Source: a virus | Virus genome (UHGV): UHGV-0064883 | DNA: 64,000 bases | Reading direction: 5' to 3' (one strand) | Shown: one piece after another, positions 1,438 through 63,589 of the stretch | How the letters are laid out: each line of letters begins with the position of its first letter | How positions within the stretch are numbered: position 1 is the stretch's first letter | Made by a program: the position numbers and the translations under genes | The notes under the pieces: model-generated | Told to the model about the DNA's origin: nothing | Database searches by the model: none | What the model saw: the letters and a program-made list of their open reading frames with translations, nothing else

Positions 1438-2324
1438 TTTTCCTTTTCCCCTCTTTTTTACTCTTCCCGCCTGTCCCGATTGCCGGAATCCCCCAGTAGT
1501 GAGTTCCGCGCCTGCTGGGTTTTCAAAAATTCTTTCCAGTAGTGCTCATACGGCCTGTTCGGCTGCGACCGGATAATTTCTCTGCAAATCCGCGCATTTT
1601 TCAGCAGGCTTTCCATGCCGGAAATCATTGCGGTGTCTGGATGCTCTTCTGTCATATCTGCGGGAGATTTCCCTGGCCCAAATCGGCGGGAAGACAGCCG
1701 TGGACGACCCTCACCACTACTCCCCCGGAACGATCGAATACGGAAAAGTAGTATTAAACCTCGCCTGCCTGACAGCCGTCCTTCTGGAAACGTGGGAAGC
1801 CCAGCGTTCATTGAGCGGAGGGGAAAAATCCAAAGACCGGAAACCGGACGACGCGGAATCCGCAGCAGGCCCATTCGGAGCTTGACCCGTACCCCCCCCG
1901 CATACAATACCGCATAGCCTACACCTCGACATGATATATGCTTTCGGCGCAGGACAACGAAAGCCTCCGGTGGAGGCTGATTCAGATGAATGTAATCGTC
2001 GTCTGGTTTTACCTCCTGCGGCTCCGGGATTCCGGAATCTGGAACAAACACCTGCAGCAGAAGCTGGACGACACGGAACTCGTCTTTTTAATCATCAAAT
2101 GGTACATGTGGTACATGCCCGTTCTGTTCCCCGCCTGATTGCGGGTGGCGAGATGAGATAAAATGATGGGCCGCGCGGAAAAAACGTGTAAAACGTGTAA
2201 AACATGTAAAATATGTGCAGTGCATGTATGCAGGGGGGACATATCGCGCGCAGGCGCGGATGCGTAAAGGCATGCGGCCCTACCCCCCCCTATGAAAGTA
2301 AATAAATAAAGAAAAAAATCGGAA

Positions 2325-3080
2325 ATGCACGCCTATTTGCTCTACACACCGGGGGAAATGCTGGAAGGCGAAGACGAACTTACCGCACTGGGCTACCATG
2401 TCCATCCTTTTTTGGGCAATAATGATACGTCCGGCCTCCGGAACAAAGTCAAACACATTCCCAGCCTGGGGCATTCCGCGTCCTATTTATCAGACGGACT
2501 GGGCTACAACTGGTGCGGCCACGTCCATGCGCTCCGCGCCAACTTTGCAACCATGCTGGAAACTTACATGGATGCGGACGACCTTACTATATATGGAGAG
2601 TCGGACTGCGTGCCCGCGCCTTATCCCCCTGTGTCCGCCGACGATATTTCCTGTGTTTGTCAAGAAGCGGTTTCCCGGCATCCTGAAATCGGCATCATCC
2701 GTCTGTACCGCCGCGCCACACTATTTAACGAGCCTACCTGGTGGAACCATGCGCCCCTTGAGATTGTCCCGCTGAAAAAGGCGGCCAGAATCTCCAACAT
2801 TCCTTTTACGAAATATTACTGTCAAACCCACGCCCTGATTATCCGCAGGCACGTCCGCCAAACGGTCATCGACGCCATGCGGGATTATTATTTGCCCATT
2901 GACGTGCTCCTATCTTATTTGTCCCAGATTGGGACCGTGCCCGTGTGGCACACCAGCATCAACCTAATGCTTCAACGCCCCCACAGCACGGGAAAGAGGC
3001 TGGCGGACTGGCAGCGCAAACATTCTGTTCCGGCAGCGGACTATTGGCGCGACAGGCCCGGACTGACTGGAAAAAGGTAG
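2325..3080 (+). CDS. Identical second copy of the 251-aa protein; repeat copy B
   Basis: Identical translation to 656..1411. Confidence 0.55.
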   Translation: MHAYLLYTPGEMLEGEDELTALGYHVHPFLGNNDTSGLRNKVKHIPSLGHSASYLSDGLGYNWCGHVHALRANFATMLETYMDADDLTIYGESDCVPAPYPPVSADDISCVCQEAVSRHPEIGIIRLYRRATLFNEPTWWNHAPLEIVPLKKAARISNIPFTKYYCQTHALIIRRHVRQTVIDAMRDYYLPIDVLLSYLSQIGTVPVWHTSINLMLQRPHSTGKRLADWQRKHSVPAADYWRDRPGLTGKR

Positions 3081-3089
3081 GTGCACAAA

Positions 3090-3106
3090 TTTGCAATCAT
3101 TGCAAA
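3090..3106. promoter_or_regulatory. 17-bp palindrome TTTGCAATCATTGCAAA (copy in repeat B)
   Basis: Identical to 1421-1437. Confidence 0.8.
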
Positions 3107-3126
3107 TTTTCCTTTTCCCCTCTTTT

Positions 3127-3324
3127 TTACTCTTCCCGCCTGTCCCGATTGCCGGAATCCCCCAGTAGTGAGTTCCGCGCCTGCTGGGTTTTCAAAAATT
3201 CTTTCCAGTAGTGCTCATACGGCCTGTTCGGCTGCGACCGGATAATTTCTCTGCAAATCCGCGCATTTTTCAGCAGGCTTTCCATGCCGGAAATCATTGC
3301 GGTGTCTGGATGCTCTTCTGTCAT
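3127..3324 (-). CDS. Small hypothetical protein (65 aa) from an ATG at 3324; same sequence in copy A at 1458..1655
   Basis: Coding-like codon usage, MTEEHPDTAMISGMESLLKNARICREIIRSQPNRPYEHYWKEFLK... It is convergent with the 251-aa gene across the palindrome at 3090. Confidence 0.3.
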   Translation of the reverse strand: MTEEHPDTAMISGMESLLKNARICREIIRSQPNRPYEHYWKEFLKTQQARNSLLGDSGNRDRREE

Positions 3325-3380
3325 ATCTGCGGGAGATTTTAATAAAAAAAGTTCATTTAAGAAAGATTTTTTCTCACTTT

Positions 3381-5574: not shown

Positions 5575-5624
5575 TTTTTTTCGCACTCTCATGAGTGCGT
5601 GGATTGAAACTGCAACACCAGCCT

Positions 5625-6290
5625 ATGAGCGTTTTTACCTATCCGGTCGAGGGCCTTCGCCGCGTGCTGATTCCGCAGAAATGCGGCTGGACGCTAGCCT
5701 GGGATTCCCTCCCCCGCTGGAACGGTCGGGTGGTGATTGACTCCAATGACTACCCCGCGAAAAATCTGGACTGCATGTTTGTCAGGGAGCCGGTGGCCCG
5801 GTTCATGTCCGCTTTCCGGAACAAGATAGAGTTCGGGCCGCAGTCCTACCCCAAAAACGCCAACGGTCAGTTCAACGTCTGGTCCGGCATCCAATGGGTT
5901 GCCTGTGTGTGCGGCATCCCCCCGGACCTGGTGCAGAAGCAGGTTACTGTGTCCCTGATGCTGGACGTGTTGGAGGACATCATCAAAAAAAAACCGAGGG
6001 CGGCGCAATACAACCACGCCGTACTTGACCTGCACTGGTCCCCGCAGGTCTATCATGTGGCCCCCGGCCATATTCCGGAACTGCTCATTGACCCCCGGAA
6101 CGATTTTTCCGTCCTGGACAGATTAAAAATTGACTACTCTACGCACAATCACAATAATACCAGCCGTTATGGAGGCTACCAGCCTACACCGGAAGAGGTC
6201 GCACGCATCAAGGCCCTGTATGCCGAGGATGTAGCACTTTACGCCAGATACCAGCATGATTACGCCCTTCGCCAGTTACCCGCCCAGTGA
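5625..6290 (+). CDS. Sulfotransferase, PF03567-like (Sulfotransfer_2 family)
   Basis: IPQKCGWT matches the 5'-PSB PAPS-binding motif (P-K-x-G-x-T). MFVREPVARFMSAFRNK matches the 3'-PB motif (V-R-d-P-x-x-R-x-x-S-a-Y/F-r-n-K). Start taken at the first ATG, 5625; the ORF opens at GTG 5595. Confidence 0.7.
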   Translation: MSVFTYPVEGLRRVLIPQKCGWTLAWDSLPRWNGRVVIDSNDYPAKNLDCMFVREPVARFMSAFRNKIEFGPQSYPKNANGQFNVWSGIQWVACVCGIPPDLVQKQVTVSLMLDVLEDIIKKKPRAAQYNHAVLDLHWSPQVYHVAPGHIPELLIDPRNDFSVLDRLKIDYSTHNHNNTSRYGGYQPTPEEVARIKALYAEDVALYARYQHDYALRQLPAQ

Positions 6291-7107
6291 CGCCCCGGAG
6301 TTCATCAAATACTCCCACCACCTGATTGACCTCGCCTTGAGAAAAGCCCGGCGTCCGGCCATCCTCTGTTCCTACGGCAAGGATTCCGGCGTTGTCCTGC
6401 ATTTGCTCTCCCAGCACGTCGATTTATCCCGCATCGACGTTATTTACATTGATTCCACTTTTGAATTCCCGGCGTTTTACAAGCACATTGCCGGGATGAA
6501 AGCCTTTTTCGGCATCCGGCACGGCGGCCCTCATGACGTGCACTGCCAGAATAACCAGGCCATCCGTTCCGGCATGTCCTACGACAACACCCCGGTGCTC
6601 AAGTTGACGCAGACCCTGAAAACCGACGTATTGGTGCAGGTGCTGAAAGAGCGAAATATTGACTTTCTGTTCACCGGCATCCGGCGCGACGAAGAGGGTT
6701 CCCGTGCCAAGGAACGCTATTTCTCCTACCGGGAAGCCGACGGCACGTTTGACCCGGTAAGCAACCGCCCCGGATTCTATCCGCTGGACGGGCTGGATGT
6801 GCAGTCCCCCGGTTCCGGGCATTACCGCGTCAATATCCTTCTGGGCTGGTCGGAGCGGGACGTGTGGGAATACACGGAAAAGCACCTGCTTCCCGTCTGC
6901 CCGCTGTACCTTGCCAAAGACGGAAAGCGCTACCGCTCCCTTGGAGACGAGCCGGTGACTACTCCGGTGGATTCCGACGCTGACAGCATCGACAAAATCA
7001 TCAAGGAGCTGTACCATACCAGCGTGCCGGAACGGGCATGCCGGAAATCACAGGACAATTCCGCGCCGTACGCAATGGAGATGCTGCGGCGCAAGGGATT
7101 CTGCTAA
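6256..7107 (+). CDS. cysD: Sulfate adenylyltransferase subunit 2 (CysD; PAPS-reductase/PP-loop family)
   Basis: LCSYGKDSGVVLHLL (PP-loop SxGxDS), FTGIRRDEEGSRAKERYFSYRE, LGWSERDVWEYTEKHLLPVCPLY and RSLGDEPVTTPV align closely with the bacterial CysD blocks [49 protein letters not shown]...VPLY and RTLGCWPLTGAV. Confidence 0.85.
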   Translation: MITPFASYPPSDAPEFIKYSHHLIDLALRKARRPAILCSYGKDSGVVLHLLSQHVDLSRIDVIYIDSTFEFPAFYKHIAGMKAFFGIRHGGPHDVHCQNNQAIRSGMSYDNTPVLKLTQTLKTDVLVQVLKERNIDFLFTGIRRDEEGSRAKERYFSYREADGTFDPVSNRPGFYPLDGLDVQSPGSGHYRVNILLGWSERDVWEYTEKHLLPVCPLYLAKDGKRYRSLGDEPVTTPVDSDADSIDKIIKELYHTSVPERACRKSQDNSAPYAMEMLRRKGFC

Positions 7108-7137
7108 CAGTTCCATTTTTTCCTTTCCGCTCTTGCC

Positions 7138-7860
7138 ATGATACCGGATGACCCGTTCACCCAGCCGGAAAAAAAACCTGAAAAGCCGGGAGGCATCACG
7201 CAAATCTGGATAGGCGGAGAAGATAATATACCGCAGGAAATGCGGGAATGGATGTCCGGGGTGCGGGCCTACTGCAACCAGTTCAACCTTCCGTACCGCT
7301 GTTTGAACGGGAGGCAATGCAAGGCTCTGCTGGATGAGTTCGGCATCCCGTTCAATCCTACCGGGGGCATCATGAGCCTGACCGACATGGCGCGGGTGTG
7401 TGCCCTGAAAAAATGGGGCGGCTGGTATCTGGACACAGACGTAAAAATCCAGCGTCCGGCAGCCTTCCATGATTACTCGGTTTCTGTCTGCGAACAGGAG
7501 CCTTCTACTGTTTTTTACAATGCCATCACCTACGGCTGGATGTACAATCACGGAGTGCTTTATGCCTCCGGGGACGATTCCTGCCTGTTCCTGGATGCCA
7601 TGCTGGACGCGTGCCGGGAGACGTACAAGACAGTCCATGCTTCCGATTCCGGGTGGGGGCTGGAAAGCACCGTTCAGAATATGGTGCATCATGACCGCCA
7701 ATGGGTAGGCTGGCATCAAGGACTGCCAAAGGGCGTTTGCGATTGCGGCAATCCGTCCAGCATGATTAACCATGTGCTTTATGGGACCTGGTACAATAGC
7801 GCACACATGACTCCCGGCATCAAGGACGCGGAAACTTATTCAAAGGTTTCCGATTTGTAG
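7138..7860 (+). CDS. Glycosyltransferase, GT32-like (Och1/TcdA-type DXD sugar transferase)
   Basis: WIGGE...LTDMARVCALKKWGGWYLDTDV matches the GT32 signature (sD..R...L.k.GG.Y.D.D). Confidence 0.7.
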   Translation: MIPDDPFTQPEKKPEKPGGITQIWIGGEDNIPQEMREWMSGVRAYCNQFNLPYRCLNGRQCKALLDEFGIPFNPTGGIMSLTDMARVCALKKWGGWYLDTDVKIQRPAAFHDYSVSVCEQEPSTVFYNAITYGWMYNHGVLYASGDDSCLFLDAMLDACRETYKTVHASDSGWGLESTVQNMVHHDRQWVGWHQGLPKGVCDCGNPSSMINHVLYGTWYNSAHMTPGIKDAETYSKVSDL

Positions 7861-7909
7861 TCCGGAATAATTTTTGCAAAAAAGAAAAAACAATGGTAAT
7901 ACGTAGCGC

Positions 7910-8761
7910 ATGCCACGTGAAAAAATCATCATTGCCGTGTGCGGAATCCCTGACACGGGAAAAAGCACTTTTATCGCCAACGCCGCGAAACACCTGAACG
8001 GAATGGAGGTCCAGCCGGATGCCCTGTGCGTAGAGCAGCAGACCGGGAAAACCATTGCAACCTCATTCATCACCACCTGGGGCGAAGAGTGGCAGCGGGA
8101 CGGAAAAACCTGCGATTTGGTCTTTGTGGACTGCCCCGGCCATGTGCAGTTCCTTCCGGAGATTGTCGCGGGCTTGTCTGCGGCCCATGCCTACATTGTC
8201 ATCCATGACGCTTCCCGCATTGAGGCGAGCCAGGCATATGCCCGGATGCTGGAAGATGTCGCAGGCGTGCTTGGCGTGCCTCGGCTCGCCACCCTCTACA
8301 GCCATTGCGACAGCACCGGGGAATACTGCTACAACGTGGGTGTTGACAACCGGCTTCCGGGAATTGCCGAAAGGGTTATCCGGCGTGCCCTGGCGGGCGG
8401 CAAAGATAAGCTGGTTCATCCCACGGCATCCTGGCTTGGCTACATCCGGCAGGAGCCGTTCGATACGCCTGATGCCCGGCACAGGGTGTCCGTCATCTGG
8501 CTTCCCTGCGCTTCCCGGCTCACTCCGGTTTCCCTTCTCCGGGCAGAGCTTCCCGACCGAACGGTCGAACTCGGAGAGGCTGGCTCCGTTCTAGACCCCA
8601 TCCCCAGGGAAAGCGACTTCCAGACCGCCCCATTGATACGGCACATTTACCTGCAATTCCCTGTCCGGTATCTGGACCCCGTGCGCTTCCTGATTTGCGA
8701 CTCGGAGCTGGGAACGGTCGGAGTCGGAACAGTAACCCCGTGGGAAACCCAAATGTTATGA
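7910..8761 (+). CDS. CysN/EF-Tu-like GTPase (283 aa; truncated, divergent putative sulfate adenylyltransferase subunit 1)
   Basis: G1 CGIPDTGKST and G3 DCPGHVQF (DxPGH) match translation-factor/CysN GTPases. No canonical NKxD motif. Adjacent to cysD. Its stop overlaps the next start (ATGA). Confidence 0.55.
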   Translation: MPREKIIIAVCGIPDTGKSTFIANAAKHLNGMEVQPDALCVEQQTGKTIATSFITTWGEEWQRDGKTCDLVFVDCPGHVQFLPEIVAGLSAAHAYIVIHDASRIEASQAYARMLEDVAGVLGVPRLATLYSHCDSTGEYCYNVGVDNRLPGIAERVIRRALAGGKDKLVHPTASWLGYIRQEPFDTPDARHRVSVIWLPCASRLTPVSLLRAELPDRTVELGEAGSVLDPIPRESDFQTAPLIRHIYLQFPVRYLDPVRFLICDSELGTVGVGTVTPWETQML

Positions 8762-8979
8762 GCAACGTAGCTATCCCATACCAGCCCCACGACTGCCCCG
8801 TCTGCGGAAAGAACCTCTGCTACAGCGCCGGAAAGGACGGCTGCTATTATTCCTGCCCGGAATGCAGGTATTCCGTCCAGTCCGGTGCGACCCTGCAAGA
8901 AGCACAAAGGCATCTTTTCATCTTTGCGGCGGCAGTCCTCAAAAACCAGAACACGCAACACGACACCATCACCCAATGA
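8758..8979 (+). CDS. Small zinc-ribbon protein (73 aa)
   Basis: CPVCGKNLCYSAGKDGCYYSCPECRY contains two CxxC pairs. ATGA overlap with the upstream gene and with cysC downstream. Confidence 0.5.
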   Translation: MSNVAIPYQPHDCPVCGKNLCYSAGKDGCYYSCPECRYSVQSGATLQEAQRHLFIFAAAVLKNQNTQHDTITQ

Positions 8980-9479
8980 TTATTCTTCTCACCGGCGAAA
9001 GCGGCGTCGGAAAAACGTCTGTGGCAAAAACCCTGATGAACCGGCATCCGGGCATCCTTCTCGACGGCGACGACATGCGGGACGGATTGAACAGCGACCT
9101 TGGGTTTTCCGACCAGGACATCATGGAGAACATGCGCCGGGCGGCGCACATAGCCGTACTGCTGCATGACCAGCTTCCGGAAGACCGGCGCACGGTTTAC
9201 ATCACCTGCATTGCCCCGCTGCTGGCCGGAAGGAATCTGGTGCATGAGCTGTGCGGTTCCCGGTTGTGGGAGATTCGCATCCAGTATGATTACCGGGCTT
9301 CCGACGACGTAAAAGGGTTGTACAAGGCGGGAACCCCCATGCGGGCCTACGAAGAGTACCCCAGCGAAACGTTGCTGCTCCCCCGCCGGATAAACCGCGT
9401 GTACCGGTACTACAACGATACCGTGTGCGCTCTGGCCGCCAAAATAGAAAAGCTGTGGCCTGCGGACAAAACCGCTTGA
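8976..9479 (+). CDS. cysC: Adenylylsulfate (APS) kinase CysC
   Basis: ILLTGESGVGKTSVAKTL (P-loop), LLDGDDMRDGLNSDLGFSDQDIMENMRRAAHIA and KGLYKAGTPMRAYEEYP match the APS-kinase motifs TGLSGSGKST, LDGDNvRhGLnkDLgFsdeDR.ENiRR and KGLYkkAr.g....FTGi. Confidence 0.9.
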   Translation: MIILLTGESGVGKTSVAKTLMNRHPGILLDGDDMRDGLNSDLGFSDQDIMENMRRAAHIAVLLHDQLPEDRRTVYITCIAPLLAGRNLVHELCGSRLWEIRIQYDYRASDDVKGLYKAGTPMRAYEEYPSETLLLPRRINRVYRYYNDTVCALAAKIEKLWPADKTA

Positions 9480-36898: not shown

Positions 36899-37267
36899 CT
36901 ATGCCCATATAACATTCCCCAGCCGGGAAATATCCACCGCCTTTTTCCCGGCGCGCATAGCCGCCCTCAGTTCCCCGTAGTTCCTGCGGATTTCGTGCGT
37001 TACTGGGTAATCCCGGAACACGTTGATATAATTCAGCCACCGTTCCTTTTGCGTGTACACCGCCGAATCTTTTATTATGTAGATTGTTGCGCTTTCATCA
37101 ATTTTCCTGTCCGGGAGGCACGTGCAGCAATACCACTGATACCACTCATGAATGAGGTACACTGTATTAAAGCCGCGCAGGGTCATGACAGCCGTATCAG
37201 CGATATATTTGGGGGCCAGATTAAAAAGCTGCTCTTTGGTCAGTTCAATTTTCTTTGGTGCTTTCAT
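36899..37267 (-). CDS. Hypothetical protein (122 aa), one of only two credible minus-strand genes
   Basis: ATG ORF. The minus strand carries a TTTTTATCTTGCAAT promoter-like box (plus coordinates 37306-37320), and it shares the palindrome at 37341. Confidence 0.5.
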   Translation of the reverse strand: MKAPKKIELTKEQLFNLAPKYIADTAVMTLRGFNTVYLIHEWYQWYCCTCLPDRKIDESATIYIIKDSAVYTQKERWLNYINVFRDYPVTHEIRRNYGELRAAMRAGKKAVDISRLGNVIWA

Positions 37268-37305: not shown

Positions 37306-37320
37306 ATTGCAAGATAAAAA
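37306..37320 (-). promoter_or_regulatory. Minus-strand copy of the TTTTTATCTTGCAAT promoter-like box
   Basis: Plus strand reads ATTGCAAGATAAAAA. Confidence 0.5.
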
Positions 37321-37340: not shown

Positions 37341-37357
37341 TTTGCAATCATTGCAAA
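37341..37357. promoter_or_regulatory. 17-bp palindrome TTTGCAATCATTGCAAA between divergent genes
   Basis: Read directly from the sequence. Confidence 0.8.
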
Positions 37358-38485: not shown

Positions 38486-39526
38486 ATGGATTATTTATTT
38501 CCGCATTATTTTGACCGTATTGTCGTCATCAATCTCGCCAAAAACCCCGAACGGTTCACCCGCATTGCCGACGAGCTGAAACATAAGTGCCTGGCCGGGC
38601 CGGATGATATTGTCAGGCATGAAGCCGTGCATGGGGATTCCATGCCGCACCCGGCATGGTACAGGGCCGGAAACGGAGCATGGGGGTGCTTATCCAGCCA
38701 CATTGAGGTGCTGGAAGATGCCTGGAATACCGGAAGCGAGCATACTCTGATTATTGAGGATGACACCGTATTCGCCGACGACCTTTTGACGCGGTTCCCG
38801 GAAATCATGAAAGAAGTTCCGAAGGAATACGGGCAGCTGTATCTTGGAGGCCAGCACCAGCAGGCCCCGGAAGCCCTGTCTGACACGTTGTGGCGCGGCA
38901 CGTCCATCAACCGGACGCACTGCTACGCCGTCACCCGGAAATTCATTCCGGAAATCCTCGCCCACATCATGGACTGGGACACCCACATCAAGGCTGCGGG
39001 AAACCCGCTCCATATCGACCACACGCTGGAAATCGGACACCAGCGCCGGTACTGGCCCGTGTTCTGCCCCCGGTTCTGGTTCGCCGGGCAGGGAGAAAAC
39101 CAATCCGACATCAACGGCAGGCCGCAGCGGGAAATGTGGTGGGAATATTCCGTGAAACAACAACACCTGGAACTTCCCCTGCTTGTGTTGCGGACCGTTG
39201 ACATGCCAAAACATATTAAAGACCTTGTGTTTGCCGGTTGGCCGACAGATTTGGACGCCCGTGGCGTGAACAAAAAAATTGAGGATGCCAAAAAAGACAA
39301 GGCCACCCTGCTTCGGGAAATAAGCTGGCTGGCTTATGTGGGATTCCAACACCACAGCCTTCCGGCGGTGTATCTTCCGGAGCCGGAACCTACCAGCGAG
39401 CTGCAACGCCTGTGGTCCGGGGAAGTCGTTGACACGGCCCGCATGGATGACGCGGACATTCACCGGATGCACCGCATTCTGGAATTCGCCAGCAACCCGG
39501 AGATGCTAAAGTATAGGTTCCGATAG
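38486..39526 (+). CDS. Glycosyltransferase family 25 paralogue 2
   Basis: RIVVINLAKNPERF...GAWGCLSSHIEVLEDA...TLIIEDDTVFADD...LYLGGQHQQ. The C-terminal 130 aa are paralogous to gene 37411. Confidence 0.7.
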   Translation: MDYLFPHYFDRIVVINLAKNPERFTRIADELKHKCLAGPDDIVRHEAVHGDSMPHPAWYRAGNGAWGCLSSHIEVLEDAWNTGSEHTLIIEDDTVFADDLLTRFPEIMKEVPKEYGQLYLGGQHQQAPEALSDTLWRGTSINRTHCYAVTRKFIPEILAHIMDWDTHIKAAGNPLHIDHTLEIGHQRRYWPVFCPRFWFAGQGENQSDINGRPQREMWWEYSVKQQHLELPLLVLRTVDMPKHIKDLVFAGWPTDLDARGVNKKIEDAKKDKATLLREISWLAYVGFQHHSLPAVYLPEPEPTSELQRLWSGEVVDTARMDDADIHRMHRILEFASNPEMLKYRFR

Positions 39527-39563
39527 GTTGACGGCTTTTCCGGGCGCAAGTATCATGGCAGGC

Positions 39564-40172
39564 ATGAAACGGTTACGTTTGATGCCTGTCTTTTTTGTGA
39601 TTGCCGGGTGCGCCCAGCAAAACCCGCAGCCGTCCATTACTACGCCCGTACCGGAGCCGGTTGTGGAAAAAACAGTCGTCCGGCCTGTAGCGTCGTCAAC
39701 GGTCGAATGCGCGGCTACTGTCCAGGAAGCGGCCAACGCCGTGCAGAACAGTATTGCGGCTATTGTCTCCACTCTGCAGCAGGCGGAGGCCGCCACACAG
39801 GAACCGCAAACCCCCGGATGGGCTGACATGTTGTCCGAGCTGGCAAAGCAGGCCGGAAACGCGGATAAGCAAACCGCCGTGCTGATAGACCGTTCCGACC
39901 GCCTGACCAAACAGGTGACCGCTTTATCCGGAACGTGCGAACAACTGGCGGAAGAACGGGACGCGGCAATCAAAACCGCGCAGGAATCCAGAGACGCAGC
40001 CTCGGCAATCAAGGCGGAAGCCGCAGAGGTAAAAGCTGATGCACAGGCCCGCCTGTCCTCCATGTCGGACGAGCGTTCCTGGTGGCGGAAATGCGCCCTT
40101 TACACCTGGGCAGGCATTGCGGTTTTTTGTTTGGCGTGGCTCGGAATCCGGCTGGCAAGGGCCGCCAGATAG
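39564..40172 (+). CDS. Spanin-like lipoprotein with coiled-coil and a C-terminal TM segment (unimolecular-spanin architecture)
   Basis: MKRLRLMPVFFVIAGC (signal plus lipobox IAGC), an A/E/Q-rich coiled-coil middle, and a C-terminal ALYTWAGIAVFCLAWLGIRLA. Confidence 0.45.
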   Translation: MKRLRLMPVFFVIAGCAQQNPQPSITTPVPEPVVEKTVVRPVASSTVECAATVQEAANAVQNSIAAIVSTLQQAEAATQEPQTPGWADMLSELAKQAGNADKQTAVLIDRSDRLTKQVTALSGTCEQLAEERDAAIKTAQESRDAASAIKAEAAEVKADAQARLSSMSDERSWWRKCALYTWAGIAVFCLAWLGIRLARAAR

Positions 40173-40189
40173 CGGGAAAATATTCTCAA

Positions 40190-40206
40190 TTTGCAATCAT
40201 TGCAAA
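40190..40206. promoter_or_regulatory. 17-bp palindrome TTTGCAATCATTGCAAA at the edge of the AT-rich region
   Basis: Read directly from the sequence. Confidence 0.8.
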
Positions 40207-40720
40207 CCGGAAAAACCGGTGATTCAAGGCCGTAATTCTACGGTCTTTTTTATTTGTCAATATTGTTTTTTACGTTTTTATAACTTATTGAGCATCATTT
40301 GGTTGCAAATAGTATGCACCAAGAAATTTCTAGTTTAGTTATTTGTCATTGAGTATTAGATACTTACAAATAATTTGCACTTTTATAAGTTCAGGGCATT
40401 TGCAGGCGTTTGAGTATCAATAAGTTATAAATGCACTAAATCCGGAAAAACGCGCTGAATCCGCAATGGGTGCAAATATAACCAGCTGATTATCATATCA
40501 TTGTGCATAACTTGCACTTGCGCGGAAGTGCATTTATTTTACAAACTACTGAAAATGAACAGGTTATAAAGACAACCAGAAGGGAAAAACGTCAATTTTT
40601 GTTTTTATAAGTCATTGAACTATATGAAATTATAAAAAATTTGCACTTTGGGAGTGCATTAATATATATATATATATAATGTTCGTTCCTCACATTAATA
40701 TATATCTATATTCTCCGTCC
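40207..40720. repeat. ORF-free AT-rich region with repeated TTATAA, (A)ATTTGCAC and TTGCAAAT elements and a (TA)8 run at about 40662-40680
   Basis: GC content is visibly far below the flanks. No ORF of 60 aa or more. Repeats counted by eye. Confidence 0.7.
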
Positions 40721-40721
40721 T

Positions 40722-40805
40722 TACCCTAAAGGGTAAGTACGGGGCCTGGGCTGTTCCGCCCAGGCACTCTGGGACAGGGTTGGAAGAGTAGCCCAGAGTG
40801 TGAAA
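40722..40805 (+). other. Three consecutive GC-rich hairpins (CTTACCCT-AAA-GGGTAAG; GCCTGGGC-TGTTCC-GCCCAGGC; CACTCTGGG-18 nt-CCCAGAGTG)
   Basis: Inverted repeats read directly. No tRNA cloverleaf or T-loop motif. Confidence 0.6.
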
Positions 40806-40848
40806 TTTCCACTACTGTTCCGGCCAGTTTCATGATACGGTTCCGGGG

Positions 40849-41199
40849 ATGAAAAACCTTCCGCAAATCGTCAAGGACAGTTGGCGCGATATTATCGCTT
40901 TTTTGCTCATTGGCATTTTTCTCTCCATTGGCGTGGAATACCTGATTCGCCTCTCGGTCATCATGGACGTTACCGGGGCAGCTTCCTTCATCGCCTTGCT
41001 GCAGGGCTTCACCAAGTTTGCCGGGGCCAATCTCTGCGCATGGCTGCTGGGAGCCAATGTGGCCTTCCCGTACATTTCCCGTTGGGCCAGATTCGACTTC
41101 AATGCGACCTGGCGCACGATGGAGGGGTTCCGGAAAGTCCAATGCTTCCTCGCGGTTGCCATCGGGGAATTGCTCATGGCCGCCATCTGCTTTGCCTGA
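40849..41199 (+). CDS. Holin-like membrane protein (116 aa, about 3 TM segments)
   Basis: Hydrophobic segments IIAFLLIGIFLSIGV, AASFIALLQGF and LAVAIGELLMAAICFA. Immediately upstream of the endolysin. Confidence 0.45.
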   Translation: MKNLPQIVKDSWRDIIAFLLIGIFLSIGVEYLIRLSVIMDVTGAASFIALLQGFTKFAGANLCAWLLGANVAFPYISRWARFDFNATWRTMEGFRKVQCFLAVAIGELLMAAICFA

Positions 41200-41207
41200 T
41201 ACGCCCC

Positions 41208-41900
41208 ATGAACGGTCGGAGTTTAATCGGTTTGGCCCTTGCGGCCCTGTCCGCGTTTTTCGCCTGCGGGGATATGCCGGCTTCCGGTCTGGTCCTAAGT
41301 GACCGGGCCGTAGATATGATTATCCGGTACGAGACCGGAGGGAAGGCGTACTACGTGAAAAAGCTCGTGCGGCCCACATGGCCCGGAGGGGACAGCGGGG
41401 TAACAATCGGCATCGGCTACGACCTGGGCTACTATTCGGTGGCGCAGATTCGTGCCGACTGGGCATCGCTTCCGGAAAAAGACCTCCGGTTGCTTTGCAC
41501 CGTGGCCGGGTTGAAGCGTCAGACGGCCCGCGCATCTGTGAGCCGGGTGCGGTCTGTCACCGTTCCGTGGGAGCTGGCGTTGGACGTGTACCGGAAAAAG
41601 ACGATTCCCGCCTATGCGTCCACGACTAAAACCGCGTTTCAGGGGCTGGCCTTAACTCATCCCCATGTGCAGGGTGCTATGGTGTCTTTGGTGTATAACC
41701 GGGGTGCTTCCATGTCGGGGGCCAGCCGGAAGGAGATGCGGGACTGCCGGGATGACATCAAGTCCGGGCAGGTGCGGCGGGTTCCTGCCCATATCCGGAG
41801 CATGAAACGGCTGTGGATTGGGAAGGGCCTGAACGGGCTGTTAATCCGGCGAGAAGAGGAAGCCTGTCTGGTTGAACTGGGGCTGAAAGAAAAAAATTGA
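41208..41900 (+). CDS. Endolysin, phage lysozyme (GH24-like) with an N-terminal signal/SAR-like segment
   Basis: MNGRSLIGLALAALSAFFACG, then IIRYETGGKAYY...GDSGVTIGIGYDLG (lysozyme E...D...TIGxG(H/Y)) and VSLVYNRGAS. Confidence 0.65.
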   Translation: MNGRSLIGLALAALSAFFACGDMPASGLVLSDRAVDMIIRYETGGKAYYVKKLVRPTWPGGDSGVTIGIGYDLGYYSVAQIRADWASLPEKDLRLLCTVAGLKRQTARASVSRVRSVTVPWELALDVYRKKTIPAYASTTKTAFQGLALTHPHVQGAMVSLVYNRGASMSGASRKEMRDCRDDIKSGQVRRVPAHIRSMKRLWIGKGLNGLLIRREEEACLVELGLKEKN

Positions 41901-41904
41901 TAAA

Positions 41905-41940
41905 ATGTCTTGCAATTTTTTTGTGTTGTGGGTATAGTTC
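41905..41940 (+). promoter_or_regulatory. Promoter-like box TGTCTTGCAAT-N20-TATAGTTC
   Basis: Consensus match. Overlaps the endolysin stop. Confidence 0.45.
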
Positions 41941-41944
41941 TCTC

Positions 41945-42212: not shown

Positions 42213-43886
42213 ATGACATCACAAGAAAAATACATTCAAAAATTGGACGACATGTTCGCCAGCGCGGTGAGTGTCGTATTTACGCCAAGCCGTGAACCGC
42301 GCAGAACTGTAGAGGCTGTCAAGGCAATGGGGGCGCGGGACAATGTGCCGGTGTTCGTCTGGAACGATGTGTACGGCTGGAAAGTCTTTACCGGACAGGA
42401 CCGCACCGTAGGAGTCCCGGTTGACGCGGATTCCCCGGTAGGCAATTTTTATCAGGCGTTGCGCCGCATCCTGGGATTTAAAATCGGGGAAAACACCAGT
42501 AACGCGTCTTCCCGATTTGATTATGAAAAAGGCGCGGCGTATATCGTCATGGAGGGCACTAGCCCGCATCTTGGTTTGCTTCCAATGACGACAACTCTTC
42601 TCAAGGATTACGCCTATTCCTTCCCGGAAACGCTCATGAGCCTTGTGTTGATTACGTCGGAATCCTACACCATTCCGGAAGAGCTGGCCCACGACATTCT
42701 GGTTGTGGATTTTGACCTGCCGACAAAAACCGACTTGCGCCACGCATGGGAAAGCACTGTAGCCAATCAGTACGAGTCCAAGAACCTTCCGATTCCCGAA
42801 ACCTATATTCCGGGGGACAGCGTGGATGCGCTGGTCAACGCGGCATCCGGCATGACGATTCTGGAAGCGGAAACTGCGTATTCGAGGGCTTTCACCCTTA
42901 ATGACCGCCTGTTCCCGGACATTCCCGTTGAAAATCTTCTCGCGCAGGTTCACCGCTCGAAGGAAGACATTGTGAAAAAGTCGCAGACGCTGGAAATGGT
43001 TAACCCCATTCCGGTTGATTCCATCGGCGGCCTGGAACTGCTGAAAGACTGGTTTATCACGCGGTCGGTATGTTTCAGCGAAGAGGCCCGCAAGGCGAAA
43101 GTTGATGCGCCTAAAGGCGTAGCCCTTATCGGGCCGCCAGGAACGGGTAAGTCGGTATGCTCCAAGGCGGTGGCATCCATTCTCAATCTTCCCCTCGTGC
43201 GGGTGGATTTGGGGCGGCTGTTCGGGTCTCTCGTCGGCCAGACGGAAGCCCGCACCCGGACCATGTTGAAGGAATTGGAAGCTATGGCCCCCTGCATTGT
43301 CTGGGTGGACGAAGTTGACAAGGCGGGCTTGTCTTCCGGGGCTAATGGAGATTCCGGCGTATCTTCCCGCCTGCTGGGTTCTCTGCTGACCCACATGTCG
43401 GAAAATGAGTCTGGCTTGTTCTGGATTTTCACCGCCAACCGGACGGAAAACCTTCCGTCGGAATTCTTGCGGAAGGGGCGGCTGGATGAAGTATTTTCCG
43501 TTCTGCCTCCGACTTGGGCCGAACGCCGCCAGATTTTCGACATCCACTTGAGCAAGCGCGGAATCAATATTGATGATATTGTTGACTTTGACCAGGTGCT
43601 GACGGAAAGCCGGGGATTCGTGTCTGCGGAAATTGAAGCCGCGTGCAAGGAGGCGAAAGTACTTTCTTTTTATCGCAATGTTCCGGTTACGAGCAGCCTT
43701 TTGCGGTCCACCCTTAAAGGCATCATTCCAATTTCGGAAGCGTACAAAGACCAGTTTGACGCTATGACCGAGTGGGCGCAGAATAACGCGAGGCCGTCTT
43801 CCGAGCAAGAGGTTGACGTTGATGCTTCCAGCCCGCTTCCGTCCAGCATTCCGGAATCGTTGCGTGCCCGCCGCCGCAGGCATTGA
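42213..43886 (+). CDS. AAA+ ATPase (557 aa)
   Basis: Walker A GPPGTGKS, Walker B VWVDEVDKA, sensor/arginine-finger region FTANRTENLPSEFLRKGRLDE. Confidence 0.7.
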   Translation: MTSQEKYIQKLDDMFASAVSVVFTPSREPRRTVEAVKAMGARDNVPVFVWNDVYGWKVFTGQDRTVGVPVDADSPVGNFYQALRRILGFKIGENTSNASSRFDYEKGAAYIVMEGTSPHLGLLPMTTTLLKDYAYSFPETLMSLVLITSESYTIPEELAHDILVVDFDLPTKTDLRHAWESTVANQYESKNLPIPETYIPGDSVDALVNAASGMTILEAETAYSRAFTLNDRLFPDIPVENLLAQVHRSKEDIVKKSQTLEMVNPIPVDSIGGLELLKDWFITRSVCFSEEARKAKVDAPKGVALIGPPGTGKSVCSKAVASILNLPLVRVDLGRLFGSLVGQTEARTRTMLKELEAMAPCIVWVDEVDKAGLSSGANGDSGVSSRLLGSLLTHMSENESGLFWIFTANRTENLPSEFLRKGRLDEVFSVLPPTWAERRQIFDIHLSKRGINIDDIVDFDQVLTESRGFVSAEIEAACKEAKVLSFYRNVPVTSSLLRSTLKGIIPISEAYKDQFDAMTEWAQNNARPSSEQEVDVDASSPLPSSIPESLRARRRRH

Positions 43887-43925: not shown

Positions 43926-43960
43926 TGTCTTGCAATTCTTAAATTAAAAGGGTATATTAT
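43926..43960 (+). promoter_or_regulatory. Promoter-like box TGTCTTGCAAT-N20-TATATTAT ending 5 nt before the ATG at 43965
   Basis: Consensus match. Implies a leaderless or near-leaderless transcript. Confidence 0.45.
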
Positions 43961-45749: not shown

Positions 45750-45793
45750 GATTGCAAGTTACTCTGAAAACACTATATCGTGCGCCGTGAATT

Positions 45794-46702
45794 GTGCCAA
45801 AATCTCATGTACAGTCAAGCGAAAATCAGGATTTTCACAAAATCTGGTGCTGGTTGTACCGAACGGTCCGCCCCGCAGTGGAAGCCGAATCCGCTACATT
45901 GTTTCCCGTGCTGGAATTCGTGTTCGACCGGACGCTAGCCTGCGGAAAAACCTGGGAAGTCATCAGGCTTTTTCAATTTTCGGAAAATCTGACGTTGCAC
46001 CGGAACACCATTTCCCGGAATATCAAGCGGCTGGTTGCTCTGGGGGTTATTTTTACCCGGAACCCGAAACATGGCCGAGCAATATATGCTATCAATCTAA
46101 ACTGGACTGACACCGATATGATGAAAATTCCAAAGCGGGGCCGGACGGAAGCCCCTGTCATTCCTCTTTCCGAAATAGGCCGCATGGCGGCGGAAAAAGC
46201 GGCGGAAGCCAAAAAGAAAAAGCAGCGCAAACTGTCGTTTGATGCGGTTTCCAGCTTATGGGCTTCCACCGTTGTGGACCTGCTGGGAAGGGAGGCGTTT
46301 ATTGCGCCGACGAAAACAAATTACATGGCGCTGTTTTCTTACGCCAAACGGTTTACCTCCGAGGGTAAAACCTTCTCCGATTTTAAGGATTTTTTAACTT
46401 GGGCGATTGGACGCTGGCAACTCATCATGCGAGATACCTTCCGCTGGACAAAAAACACCGCTCCGAAAGTGCCGTCCATTGGCTGGCTGGTAAAATTTTC
46501 TGCTCAATTTGAAGAAGCCTATCTGCTTTATCTTAACCCGGTCGCAGGAAAAAACCTTTCCGGCAATCCAGCCGTTAAACCGAAGAGCGCCCGACCCCGA
46601 ACGGTCGAACCGAAAATGCCAAAACCTAAACCCCAGCCCCCGAAGCTTTTGAGGCCGTCAGGCGGTGGCGCCGGAATTGAAGAGCTTCCCGAATGGCGAT
46701 AA
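45794..46702 (+). CDS. Putative replication initiation protein (winged-helix); start uncertain (GTG at 45794)
   Basis: TWEVIRLFQFSENLTLHRNTISRNIKRLVALGVIF looks like a wHTH. Basic P/K-rich C-terminus. Lies upstream of dnaB. Confidence 0.35.
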   Translation: MPKSHVQSSENQDFHKIWCWLYRTVRPAVEAESATLFPVLEFVFDRTLACGKTWEVIRLFQFSENLTLHRNTISRNIKRLVALGVIFTRNPKHGRAIYAINLNWTDTDMMKIPKRGRTEAPVIPLSEIGRMAAEKAAEAKKKKQRKLSFDAVSSLWASTVVDLLGREAFIAPTKTNYMALFSYAKRFTSEGKTFSDFKDFLTWAIGRWQLIMRDTFRWTKNTAPKVPSIGWLVKFSAQFEEAYLLYLNPVAGKNLSGNPAVKPKSARPRTVEPKMPKPKPQPPKLLRPSGGGAGIEELPEWR

Positions 46703-62943: not shown

Positions 62944-63187
62944 CCCGTCAAGACAATGAAAGTACAAGCTAAAATTATCACCGAACAGGAGTACAAATGG
63001 TACGGGGGTTGCCCCTCAAGATGCGGAACACGGAATGGGAAAATCGGTATAAAGAAAACGGCATTAAGTTTGAAACCCGCGTGAATATCTAAAATCCTCA
63101 AGCCCCTCTTTGGAGGGGCAAGACCCCTCCACCGCAACCAGAAAAACTTTTCAGCAGTAAAAATTTTCGGTGGTACTAATTAGGTTC

Positions 63188-63233
63188 TGCCCCTTTTCCG
63201 GCCTTTCGTTGCTGGGAAGGGGGCAGTTTTTTT
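63188..63233 (+). terminator. Rho-independent terminator
   Basis: CTGCCCCTTT...AAGGGGGCAG stem plus T7. Confidence 0.7.
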
Positions 63234-63399
63234 GCGTCAATTTGTAGTGGTATTTTTAATTTTAGCGCACAAATAACTATATATTGCGGCTATTTTCGTA
63301 AACGGTTGACTTTAAGAAAAATAAACTCTTGAACCGGTTTGACGGCAAGTTAAGATGCCGGAGGTTAAACACTAGTTTGGCTGTCTTCTATCTTTTCGA

Positions 63400-63440
63400 C
63401 CCCTAATTCGGAGTGATGCCCGGATTAGGGGCCTTTTTTT
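63400..63440 (+). terminator. Rho-independent terminator
   Basis: CCCCTAAT-16 nt-ATTAGGGG plus T7. Confidence 0.75.
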
Positions 63441-63445
63441 CTCCA

Positions 63446-63462
63446 TTTGCAATGATTGCAAA
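63446..63462. promoter_or_regulatory. 17-bp palindrome, centre-G variant, followed by T7
   Basis: Read directly from the sequence. Confidence 0.8.
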
Positions 63463-63490
63463 TTTTTTTCTCAAAAAAGATTCTTTTTTC

Positions 63491-63547
63491 TCTTGCAATT
63501 TCTAAAAAAGAATGATAAATTACATTCATCAAAGGGAGGGAATCCCT
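63491..63547 (+). promoter_or_regulatory. Promoter-like box TCTTGCAAT-N20-TAAATTAC plus leader hairpin CATCAAAGGGAGGGAATCCCT
   Basis: Cassette consensus. Confidence 0.55.
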
Positions 63548-63589
63548 GAGAGAGAAAAACAAAAAACCTAAAAAACCTGTTAGACTAAA

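Follow-up and report, generated by a model that had tools for sequence, protein, structure and literature searches.

The spanin-holin junction

The DNA analysed here (the window) is a stretch of 64,000 nucleotides of the virus genome UHGV-0064883; the reconstructed genome of ~83 kb referred to below takes ~20 kb from an IMG/VR contig of 97% identity. In its lysis cassette a gene-free, AT-rich island separates the spanin-like from the holin-like gene:

39555-40172, + strand: unimolecular-spanin-like gene, last gene of a long late (structural) operon
40173-40848 (676 bases): gene-free AT-rich island between the spanin-like stop (40172) and the holin-like ATG (40849)
40849-41199, + strand: holin-like membrane protein, 116 aa, three hydrophobic segments; first gene downstream of the island
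41208-41900, + strand: lysozyme-like endolysin, its N-terminus a hydrophobic signal or anchor
41910-41944, + strand: standard phage promoter TTGCAA-N17-TATAGT, marking where the island-dependent unit ends
45794-46702, + strand: O-type initiator candidate with a winged-helix N-terminus, just upstream of a DnaB-type helicase

The spanin-like protein, called as 205 aa in all assemblies, carries a lipobox (IAGC, residues 16-19) and a C-terminal transmembrane segment (180-198); family searches with it and with the holin-like protein gave no hit, and the exact holin-like protein is listed in 2448 blocks of a public assembly collection. The endolysin has weak hits to Phage_lysozyme, Pesticin and PHROG endolysin, and its counterpart by synteny in Rhizobium phage L338C is the peptidoglycan hydrolase. 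Promoters of the 41910 type recur at 43930 and 45752, and holin and endolysin form the only unit with no other recognisable promoter (standard type TTGCAA-N17-TAnnnT). The genes of the initiator candidate, the DnaB-type helicase, a primase and Pol I lie ~5-15 kb downstream of the island, and those of TerS/TerL at 73-75 kb of the reconstructed genome, ~34 kb from it. Judged by its sequence, the protein encoded at 45794-46702 is probably a lambda-O-type initiator, although the assignment is borderline: its Pfam Phage_rep_O score of 28.7 bits equals the cut-off, PHROG 'replication initiation O-like' is matched at E = 5e-5, and matches to winged-helix proteins in the PDB are weak. Ten of its 36 homologues match Phage_rep_O (best 4.6e-9), and none of ten scanned singly rose above the cut-off.

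Across the island GC content is 0.29-0.38 in 200-nt windows as against ~0.54 elsewhere, and the lowest-GC 300-nt windows of both the window and the reconstructed genome fall within it. A preliminary description had called this the only long ORF-free stretch with sharply lower GC; the stretch is real, but 'only' slightly overstates the matter, as a second ORF-poor stretch of ~0.5 kb (GC ~0.35) occurs at ~63.1-63.6 kb. None of the listed public assemblies covering the island (~32 loci) calls a gene in it, and its small ORFs were rejected as coding, being at most 35 aa long, polymorphic without third-position bias and never called in public assemblies. A blastn search of 39.5-41.9 kb against 50,697 phage records returned no DNA match, and no literature was found on the phage itself or on TGCAAC-type repeats. 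The palindrome, repeats, (TA)8 run and hairpins that had been described are all found at 40173-40848, above chance, and fall into three parts: an operon-end module, an AT-rich core of ~460 nt and a folded hairpin block. The island is a real composite region ahead of the lysis genes with a putative control function, and its repeated sites, easily melted AT tract and GC hairpins support its standing as functional non-coding DNA.

The operon end and a dispersed palindrome

The operon-end module comprises three adjoining elements:

40190-40206: dyad repeat TTTGCAATCATTGCAAA (TTTGCAA-NNN-TTGCAAA), a 7-bp inverted repeat with a 3-bp spacer
40207-40219, + strand: small hairpin CCGG-AAAAA-CCGG, immediately 3' of the palindrome
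40226-40252, + strand: intrinsic terminator of the late operon from a terminator scan, with a 9-bp stem, 4-nt loop and T6 run

The 35 nt at 40185-40219 are identical in a diverged lineage (L262) whose island differs by 21%, and the fold of 40185-40256 has a z of -5.1. A stem-loop, a U tract and pairing kept in a relative mark 40226-40252 as a rho-independent terminator: in the diverged lineage two stem changes retain pairing (A-U to G-U, G-U to A-U), and the 3' arm and T run are identical.

The palindrome had been taken to serve this locus as an origin or operator element but is a genome-wide post-stop-codon repeat, present in 19 copies in the window (0.5 expected) and 24 in the reconstructed genome, nearly all of them 0-35 nt past stop codons. 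Its spacers are TCA, TGA or CGA, and eight copies precede a promoter -35 box by 28-30 nt. The copy at 40190 is unchanged save for one singleton among 33 distinct sequences and, folded as RNA, reaches only -7.8 kcal/mol. Relatives have their own versions, in which the form is kept and the arm sequences differ, with some copies inside genes. Searches of 185,579 species genomes gave zero matches to the palindrome 22-mer AATTTGCAATSATTGCAAATTT, as fits a phage-specific repeat, and found no host by either the palindrome pattern or the BACON tail protein. Two simple identities were rejected: a sigma-70 promoter, given the lack of a -10 at the correct distance and the position of three copies only 10-11 nt ahead of a start codon, and a plain terminator, given the weak stem, the exact identity of the copies and the in-gene copies of relatives. 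Because the copies are exactly identical and relatives carry them within genes, recognition by a protein is indicated, and the dyad symmetry and the same-form arms of relatives suggest that a dimeric phage protein binds the palindrome.

The AT-rich core

Downstream of the terminator, the core holds repeats of several kinds together with promoter-like boxes:

40253-40713: AT-rich core, GC ~0.3, a candidate origin and/or promoter-operator that contains the repeat units and the conserved 14-mers
40288-40293: -35-like TTGAGC, 16 nt upstream of site 1
40307-40320, + strand: 14-mer site 1, AAATAGTATGCACC; in the diverged lineage AAATAATATGCACT, with changes toward the consensus
40349-40354: -35-like TTGAGT, ahead of site 2
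40368-40381, + strand: 14-mer site 2, AAATAATTTGCACT, identical to the consensus and within an identical 17-nt block (40368-40384)
40513-40540, + strand: inverted repeat TGCACTT-N6-AAGTGCA followed by TTTATTTT, terminator-like
40527-40540, - strand: 14-mer site 7, right arm of the inverted repeat 40513-40540
40614-40713: candidate unwinding element, the 100 bp of lowest duplex stability in the genome, with (TA)8 and two CATTAATATATAT repeats
40615-40620: -35-like TTGAAC, ahead of site 8
40634-40647, + strand: 14-mer site 8, palindromic partner of site 9
40653-40666, - strand: 14-mer site 9, pairing with site 8 as TGCACT-N5-AGTGCA (40634-40666)

Repeat units at 61-nt spacing begin at 40288, 40349 and 40410. 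The repeated TTATAA and the twofold repeat reported earlier were borne out, the former occurring six times in the core against 0.85 expected and the latter, AATTTGCAC, in exactly two copies (40372 and 40638); TGCAC/GTGCA is found nine times in 463 nt where composition predicts 0.37, a 24-fold excess, and four of the nine are lost in the diverged lineage. The half-sites that had been singled out fared worse, since neither TTGCAAAT (40303-40310) nor the other TTTGCA-type site (40397-40405) is conserved in that lineage. The (TA)8 run is present at 40663-40678 but interrupted in the diverged lineage, where it is broken, yet pure A/T. With a nearest-neighbour dG of -106.6 kcal/mol against a mean of -145.2 (sd 8.1) for the 83-kb genome, 40614-40713 provides an AT-rich, readily unwound element adjoining repeats, as in an iteron-type origin.

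Five 14-mers resembling AAATAATTTGCACT, three rightward and two leftward, lie within 360 nt, a cluster of at least three repeated sites such as an iteron-type origin has, and the 14-mer is otherwise found nowhere outside the island. Between the lineages only 3 of their 70 nt differ, as against 24% divergence of the core (p = 1e-5), and the changes run toward the consensus; in the pair of sites 8 and 9 both arms are kept and the spacer alone changes. We infer that these 14-bp sites bind a phage protein. The 14-mer is one to two mismatches from a flank and half-site of the dispersed palindrome, a closeness that hints at a global regulator rather than an initiator and so speaks against an origin.

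The boxes TTGAGC, TTGAGT and TTGAAC each stand 16 nt from a -10-like partner (TAGTAT, TAATTT and AAATTT, respectively), and the rightward 14-mers are similar to TAAATTGCA, the -10/start region of standard promoters in this phage; the -35-like boxes (TTGA(G/A)N) are not conserved in the diverged lineage. A consensus sigma-70 scan, which is not tuned to the TTGCAA/TAAATT promoters of this phage, found no excess of promoter-like sites. The terminator-like inverted repeat at 40513-40540 folds at -9.3 kcal/mol (z = -1.5), and in the diverged lineage its right arm and T-rich tail are identical while its left arm has one change. A DnaA box was rejected: the sole perfect TTATGCACA (40502-40510, - strand) is polymorphic in the main lineage and destroyed in the diverged one.

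The hairpin block ahead of the holin

The last part of the island is predicted to fold into three hairpins:

40714-40743, + strand: GC-rich hairpin 1, 12 predicted pairs (5, a one-base internal mismatch, 7) and a UAAA loop
40744-40765, + strand: GC-rich hairpin 2, 8-bp stem and 6-nt loop
40765-40800, + strand: hairpin 3, 9-bp stem (40765-40773 with 40792-40800)

Three consecutive GC-rich hairpins had been placed from 40722 onwards; they are present but begin slightly further left, at 40714. The fold of 40700-40860 reaches -66 kcal/mol (z = -4.3), with none of 200 shuffles as good. In the diverged lineage hairpin 1 shows a compensatory change from T-A to G-C and a 2-nt deletion that restores the UAAA loop, and the 36-nt block 40744-40779 is identical despite 21% divergence (P(longest run >= 35) = 0.03). 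The right arm of hairpin 3 is mutated there and its conserved left arm takes a new partner; an alternative to this hairpin is a longer, irregular predicted helix (40768-40835) that reaches the holin start region. No U tract follows any of the three hairpins, so the block lacks this mark of a lambda-type late antitermination leader. The leaders of two relatives, L267 and L265, share no sequence with it and show no significant folding.

Variation and relatives

Divergence of the core between the lineages (24%) is near the synonymous rate, with constraint in short blocks. Segregating sites in the main lineage have a density of 0.062, as compared with 0.150 at third codon positions (p = 1e-12), and the length of the island varies by only 1-3 nt among 33 distinct sequences sampled worldwide. 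The only search to yield relatives of use (L265, L266 and L267) was one with the holin in a protein collection; scanning IMG/VR with the endolysin, the AAA ATPase and DnaB, and JGI metagenomes with a holin profile, gave nothing between the same species and very distant phages. L265 (52% holin identity) has at the same junction an unrelated AT-rich island of 354 nt, with a 23-nt tandem repeat and a 29-nt inverted repeat. L267 (80-nt gap) and L266 (28-nt gap), closer and more distant relatives, have no island at the spanin-holin junction, and an origin here would therefore be recent. The island is best explained as a composite module acting in cis, specific to the lineage and inserted between spanin and holin of the lysis cassette.

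Nucleotide skew

A skew inflection, which the preliminary description had named as a check on its origin proposal, is present at the island: detrended cumulative GC skew has its minimum there (39 kb in reconstructed coordinates), and 0 of 5000 block permutations reach the range of the all-site skew. The cumulative maximum lies at 77 kb of 83 kb, roughly antipodal to the island. The raw cumulative curve has two minima, at 29.7 and 38.3 kb in reconstructed coordinates. Four-fold degenerate sites place the best breakpoint at 37.7-40.1 kb (reconstructed), a range that brackets the island, with marginal support from gene-order permutation (117/2000, p = 0.06), and the shifts in G/C and in A/T are both of leading/lagging sense. 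The switch cannot stem from gene orientation, because nearly all genes are on the + strand; an effect of gene class is possible, because the partition coincides with the late and the early/middle gene blocks. The syntenic phages L338C and HJ05, of the same gene order and orientation, have monotonic skew with no V, and the annotated junction of L338C has no such island.

Replication origin, lysis control or neither

The island is the best, albeit unproven, candidate for the replication origin of this phage. From its anatomy, conservation, skew and promoter layout we infer a bidirectional origin overlapping the holin-endolysin promoters, a tentative reading that falls somewhat short of being probable. 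The late operon would end at a copy of the dyad repeat, the small hairpin and the intrinsic terminator; the five 14-bp sites of the core would be initiator sites, with the O-like protein (45794-46702) as their candidate binder, and the abutting TA-rich segment, where 100 bp melt more readily than anywhere else in the genome, would serve as the unwinding element from which theta-type, bidirectional replication of the circularised genome starts. The three rightward sites, resembling the phage's -10/start regions, would fire rightward transcription that both activates the origin and expresses holin and endolysin via a structured leader, the three GC-rich hairpins. An origin is favoured by the skew minimum at the island with its antipodal maximum, absent in L338C and HJ05, by the least stable duplex, the conserved island-specific 14-mers and the replication genes downstream, and by the AT-rich, repeat-bearing island of L265 at the same junction. 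The promoter component draws on the terminator upstream, the -35-like boxes at 16-nt spacing and a holin-endolysin unit without other promoter. The four-fold skew is only marginal, the raw minimum double and the core near the synonymous rate, all of which disfavour an origin, as do the possible gene-class effect on skew, the lack of an island in L267 and L266, the borderline O-like assignment and the ~20 kb of the reconstruction that come from another contig; initiators of the lambda type, moreover, mostly have an origin within the gene that encodes them. A minor alternative does place the origin inside the O-like gene, where only two or three weak ATTTTC-N-AAAATCTG repeats and no tract rich in AT are found; the skew is on the rise 6 kb to the left of it already. 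The earlier proposal of an origin or lysis-control region thus survives as regards the composite region, the skew inflection and the lysis unit that lacks any other recognisable promoter, but not the roles given to the palindrome and the TTGCAAAT half-site.

Control of the lysis genes alone is a serious possibility, if a doubtful one. Here, beyond the late-operon terminator, the rightward 14-mers and their -35-like boxes would form three tandem sigma-70-type promoters for the holin-endolysin unit, with the leftward and palindromic 14-mers as operators, bound by a regulator related to the binder of the dispersed palindrome, and the hairpins would be a leader that times lysis, whether regulatory or stabilising. 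Much of the anatomy suits this: holin-endolysin is the sole unit without a standard promoter (the next being those at 41910, 43930 and 45752), a conserved terminator lies upstream, the 14-mer is like the phage's own -10/start region and near the half-site of the dispersed palindrome, the palindromic 14-mer pair overlaps the predicted start of the third promoter, and the most constrained part, the hairpin block, sits in the would-be 5' UTR. That the diverged lineage improves the -10-like parts while the -35-like boxes decay is typical promoter turnover, although the lack of conservation of those boxes also counts against promoters. Control of lysis leaves unexplained the skew minimum and antipodal maximum, in a setting where relatives of the same layout have no V; two of the five conserved sites face away from any gene, hairpins without U tracts make poor attenuators, and 460 nt of control DNA is unusual for a 1-kb lysis unit that relatives co-transcribe right after the spanin across gaps of only 28-80 nt.

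The remaining readings account for less of the evidence. The core might be a largely dispensable, lineage-specific insertion (a moron or mobile-cassette remnant, or a recombination junction) in which only the terminator and the holin leader matter, since the island is absent from L267 and L266, diverges at about the synonymous rate and splits an otherwise contiguous lysis cassette; the selective conservation of the five 14-mers (p = 1e-5), the reduced segregating-site density (0.062 vs 0.150, p = 1e-12), length changes of at most 1-3 nt across 33 distinct sequences and the island of like composition at the L265 junction make this distinctly unlikely. A structured ncRNA, which the preliminary description had offered as an option, is still less probable. 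It could be an RNA of ~150-220 nt running from the first two promoter-like sites to the terminator-like hairpin and TTTATTTT on the + strand (40513-40540), or a stand-alone three-hairpin element, for which the z of -4.3 and the compensatory change in hairpin 1 would speak. Rfam 15 yielded no known ncRNA family, with nothing relevant at E <= 10 across 39500-41500 and nothing at gathering score in the window, and ARAGORN found no tRNA or tmRNA; folding of 40380-40560 falls short of significance (z = -1.8), the diverged lineage carries a mutation in the left arm of the putative terminator, and the hairpins, lacking a terminator of their own, abut the holin start. Non-coding, AT-rich, repeat-rich DNA often flanks phage termini, but a physical genome end or pac/cos site is scarcely credible here: TerS/TerL are ~34 kb away, public contigs cross the island and start at varied positions elsewhere, and related RcF-cluster phages use P1-type headful packaging (PMC8601537).

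A bolder form of the origin reading, which we regard as unlikely, is a recently acquired, transcription-activated iteron origin whose 14-mers came from the palindrome half-site and are read by the same or a paralogous dimeric gene-end protein. If true, one recognition code, of a form common to a wide group of siphoviruses (L338C-like phages, HJ05 and Cluster O mycobacteriophages), would organise both genome-wide transcription and replication initiation. The phage is very common in the human gut, and its closest cultured relative has at most ~40% protein identity; a defined origin would permit peak-to-trough coverage analysis of its replication directly in gut metagenomes and offer a handle for replicons or 'Per'-type decoys. 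Should the island be a lysis-gene switch instead, it would represent unusual, separately regulated holin-endolysin expression.

Comparison with known systems

The origin of lambda lies inside its O gene and has four 19-bp iterons. As there, the island has dyad-type repeated sites by an AT-rich tract with a GC-containing palindrome beyond it, the gene of a probable O-type winged-helix initiator neighbours that of a DnaB-type helicase, and rightward transcription nearby is plausible. Unlike the lambda origin, the candidate is intergenic and ~5 kb upstream of the O-like gene (itself a borderline assignment), and its sites are 14 bp long, unrelated in sequence and in both orientations, with binding and initiation putative. 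Lactococcal phage origins (c2 ori and the 'Per' fragments of phi50, phi31 and sk1) are AT-rich, non-coding and several hundred bp long, and lie where transcription units meet; they contain repeats, direct as well as inverted, and a promoter from which comes a structured, untranslated RNA tied to origin function. The island is likewise AT-rich and non-coding, lies at a transcription-unit junction and has direct and inverted repeats; neither the phages nor the hosts are related, sequence similarity is absent, and whereas lactococcal function was shown experimentally, the case here is made from skew, duplex stability and conservation. The late control region of lambda (PR'-qut-6S RNA-tR') lies upstream of holin S, and the island resembles it as several hundred nt of non-coding DNA directly upstream of a holin, with putative promoter(s) and a structured leader. 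It differs in that its hairpins lack U tracts and the downstream unit is holin and endolysin only, not structural genes; no Q-like antiterminator was noticed.

The dispersed palindrome has its own parallels. KorB operators of plasmid RK2 (OB, TTTAGCSGCTAAA) are a multi-copy palindrome scattered over the replicon at varied promoter distances. By analogy, the palindrome here is scattered over one replicon that encodes ParB-family proteins, but its sequence and spacing differ, and no link between the ParB-like proteins and the palindrome is evident. Cluster O mycobacteriophages carry a 17-bp dyad repeat, TGTTCGGNNNCCGAACA, in tens of copies per genome, and its architecture is the same: a 7-bp inverted repeat, a 3-bp spacer and invariant arms (PMC4351075). 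Both repeats occur in tens of copies, mostly in short intergenic gaps, and are absent from the host genomes searched; the phages also have in common an AAA ATPase (29% identity), ParB-like proteins, glycosyltransferases encoded inside the structural region and, within the structural operon, a single gene on the reverse strand. Unlike the Cluster O repeat, the palindrome of UHGV-0064883 has TTTGCAA arms and lies almost always 0-35 nt after a stop codon. A dyad repeat noted as a Cluster O oddity thus occurs, altered, across a wide siphovirus family, which makes its function a general question.

Genome context and relatives

The window comes from a siphovirus genome in which nearly all genes lie on the + strand, and its AT-rich, gene-free island falls between a spanin-like gene and a holin-like gene. 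The nearest cultured phages, Rhizobium phage L338C and Aeromonas phage HJ05, share only ~40% identity in the AAA ATPase, and L338C retains the gene order. In human-gut assemblies the phage is extremely common: the exact holin protein occurs in 2448 blocks of the public collection, on contigs reaching ~89 kb. An 83.6-kb IMG/VR contig is 97% identical to the window phage, and the 83,078-bp working genome joins the window to ~20 kb of that contig, with a 1.67-kb start duplication collapsed. TerS/TerL are encoded in the part added to the window, at working-genome coordinates 73-75 kb.

Genome features (window coordinates)
5595-6290: sulfotransferase
6256-7107: PAPS-reductase/CysD-like gene
7138-7860: DXD glycosyltransferase
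7910-8761: GTP_EFTU/CysN-like gene
8862-9479: APS kinase
14393: portal
23629: major capsid
30346: tape measure
34390: BACON-domain tail protein, then two family-25 glycosyltransferases before the spanin-like gene
Directly before the island: unimolecular-spanin-like gene, with lipobox and C-terminal TM segment
40173-40848: island
After the island, in order: holin-like membrane protein, lysozyme-like endolysin, AAA ATPase
After the AAA ATPase: probable lambda-O-type initiator, DnaB-type helicase, Pol I, RNase H, primase, helicase, UvsX-like recombinase, RuvC

The start duplication is tandem (copies 1-1670 and 1670-3340), and its unit, which is single-copy in the IMG/VR relative, carries a gene for 251 aa (656-1411, 2325-3080; family unknown) along with a dyad repeat. 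As several independent assemblies begin near window position 0 or ~4.7 kb upstream, a variable-copy array that breaks assemblies is suggested. The genes at 5595-9479 form a set for sulfate activation and transfer, whose content hints at sulfated-glycan modification of virion, DNA or host surface; several further glycosyltransferases are encoded elsewhere. The AAA ATPase (42213-43886) has 557 aa in the window; otherwise near-identical genomes include some with an 832-aa form, and the version in the relative L265 has 793 aa and an intein-splicing domain. Across the genomes compared (L143, L144, L146 and L265) these size differences look like presence/absence polymorphism of an intein.

A composite island and its conservation

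We conclude that the island is a genuine cis-acting module, composite and specific to its lineage. All the features listed for it in the preliminary description are present. The island has repeated TGCAC/GTGCA sites (nine per 463 nt, 24-fold above composition), repeat units at 61-nt spacing, a (TA)8 run at 40663-40678 and a triple GC-rich hairpin that folds far better than shuffles (z = -4.3). Its supposed standing as the only ORF-free, low-GC stretch holds in part: it is intergenic, has the genome's lowest GC and contains no gene call in ~32 listed public-assembly loci spanning it, but a second ORF-poor stretch lies near 63.1-63.6 kb. This second stretch (63093-63589, ~0.5 kb, GC ~0.35) contains two terminator-like hairpins, a dyad repeat and a promoter module, and shows no skew inflection.

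In 14 main-lineage genomes that differ by no more than 3%, segregating sites number 0.062 per site in the island against 0.150 for third codon positions (p = 1e-12), and 0.022 in the block of three hairpins before the holin-like gene. The diverged lineage (L262/L263) is 90% identical to the window in flanking genes but 78.5% in the island, where most of the AT-rich core (40253-40713) differs by 24%, close to what the flanks show at synonymous sites (9-29%).

Elements conserved in the diverged lineage
40185-40219: palindrome and CCGG-A5-CCGG hairpin, all 35 nt unchanged
40238-40262: terminator 3' arm and T run
40744-40779: hairpin 2 and left arm of hairpin 3, all 36 nt unchanged
40307 (+), 40368 (+), 40527 (-), 40634 (+), 40653 (-): five 14-mers

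For the run at 40744-40779, the probability of a longest run of at least 35 is 0.03 per block. The 14-mers together show three differences in 70 nt between lineages (p = 1e-5), all three toward the consensus AAATAATTTGCACT, and none of the four other TGCAC sites, including the sole perfect DnaA-box-like sequence, is conserved in the diverged lineage. Also lost there are a TTTGCA-type site (40397-40405) and the TTGCAAAT half-site (40303-40310), which had been proposed as a regulator site. Pairing survives changes in the terminator stem; in hairpin 1 a T-A pair has become G-C by a compensatory change and a deletion restores the UAAA loop, and hairpin 3 is remodelled. The 14-mer is absent elsewhere in the genome, and differs at only one or two positions from AAAAAATTTGCAAT, the dispersed palindrome's half-site together with its A-rich flank.

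Possible replication origin or control of lysis

We tentatively rank first a bidirectional origin overlapping rightward promoters that would feed the holin-endolysin unit. Anatomy, conservation and skew are observed; binding by a protein, activity of the promoters and initiation are inferred from them. The skew inflection proposed as a check on an origin was found, with the detrended cumulative minimum at the island (working-genome coordinate 39 kb). Starting at ~77-80 kb, cumulative GC skew declines across the genome start as far as the island and then rises steadily to ~77 kb, its maximum roughly antipodal to the island, and 0 of 5000 block permutations matched this range. Gene orientation does not produce the switch, because the genes lie on one strand, and a simple gene-class explanation is argued against by L338C and HJ05, which share the layout yet have monotonic skews; L338C has no such island at its annotated junction. 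At four-fold degenerate sites the best breakpoint spans 37.7-40.1 kb (working genome), either side of the island, with G/C and A/T shifts both fitting leading and lagging strands; under gene-order permutation it reaches only p = 0.06. The genome's least stable 100-bp duplex is at 40614-40713, and the probable O-type initiator gene lies 5 kb downstream of the island. That gene itself has no convincing iterons or AT tract; two or three dyad-like ATTTTC-N-AAAATCTG repeats in its 5' part (45791-45991) mark a weak alternative origin location, without an adjoining AT-rich tract. At the junction that holds the island, L265 (52% holin identity) carries a different AT-rich, repeat-rich island of 354 nt, and in two other relatives the gap measures just 80 and 28 nt.

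A promoter/operator region for the lysis genes, without origin function, is possible and ranks second. The late operon ends at a conserved terminator (40226-40252), and standard promoters besides eight full modules occur at 41910, 43930 and 45752; only holin and endolysin need supply from the island or read-through. The rightward 14-mers, three in number, look like the -10/start region of standard promoters (TAAWTTGCA), and in the window lineage a TTGA(G/A)N box precedes each of them by 16 nt. L262/L263 show decay of these boxes and improvement of the -10-like parts. The two leftward 14-mers face no gene, and one forms with the third rightward site a palindrome of conserved arms and variable spacer, which carries the signature of a dimer-binding operator and may act as one. 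A largely dispensable insertion seems improbable. A non-coding RNA gene, for which the compensatory change in hairpin 1 might speak, is unlikely, and a genome end or packaging site very unlikely.

A dispersed dyad repeat

The 17-bp palindrome TTTGCAA-NNN-TTGCAAA, first described as an opening element of the island, proved to be genome-wide: the window has 19 copies of TTTGCAATCATTGCAAA, where 0.5 would be expected, and the working genome has 24. The copy at 40190 therefore tells nothing specific of the island; it marks the late-operon end. The arms are invariant, with TCA, TGA or CGA between them. A stop codon lies 0-35 nt before the start of most copies, and the next start codon follows at anything from 10 to >100 nt. 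As RNA the palindrome is a weak hairpin (-7.8 kcal/mol).

Dyad repeats and promoter modules
Dyad repeat, window: 1421, 3090, 5558, 9616, 11815, 16467, 19465, 23502, 29534, 33549, 37341, 40190, 42162, 45136, 51462, 53571, 58763, 62593, 63446
Promoter module, window: 9661, 37312 (- strand), 51507, 53617, 62638, 63493
Promoter module, outside the window (window-equivalent coordinates): 68037, 70971

Eight palindrome copies are each followed, after 28-30 nt, by the -35 box of a promoter module, TTGCAA-N17-TAAATT ... CATCAAAGGGAGGG. Its eight copies are near-identical, from a T-rich upstream part to a conserved leader, CATCAAAGGGAGGGAAnCCCT, with a small hairpin, and resemble the mobile promoter/stem-loop cassettes of T4-type phages. 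The module at 37312 serves the late operon's sole reverse-strand gene (36899-37267; 122 aa, no family), which shares the dyad repeat at 37341 and parallels gp53, the reverse-strand DNA-binding gene in the structural operon of mycobacteriophage Corndog.

The palindrome 22-mer has no match among 185,579 species genomes, and distant relatives carry multi-copy palindromes of their own with the same form: TGCAACNNGTTGCA in L338C (43 copies) and HJ05 (16), and TGAACCCCGGTTCA, TGCCAATTGGCA and TTGCAATCGATTGCAA in several IMG/VR contigs, some copies in relatives being intragenic. This family-wide repeat is a more unusual lead than the island itself, and is probably the site for a dimeric protein. Two ParB-like proteins are encoded outside the window (working genome 75623-76615 and 80288-81112; IMGVR_UViG_3300014804_000005), one matching PHROG 620 (E = 4e-55); by analogy with KorB/OB of RK2 they are candidate binders. 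L338C encodes an IbrB-like ParB-domain protein, and Cluster O mycobacteriophages, which have the AAA ATPase in common with the window phage, a ParB-like protein. Cluster O phages are reported to carry 34 copies of a repeat with the same 7-3-7 architecture, for which binding of a dimeric protein has been proposed (PMC4351075).
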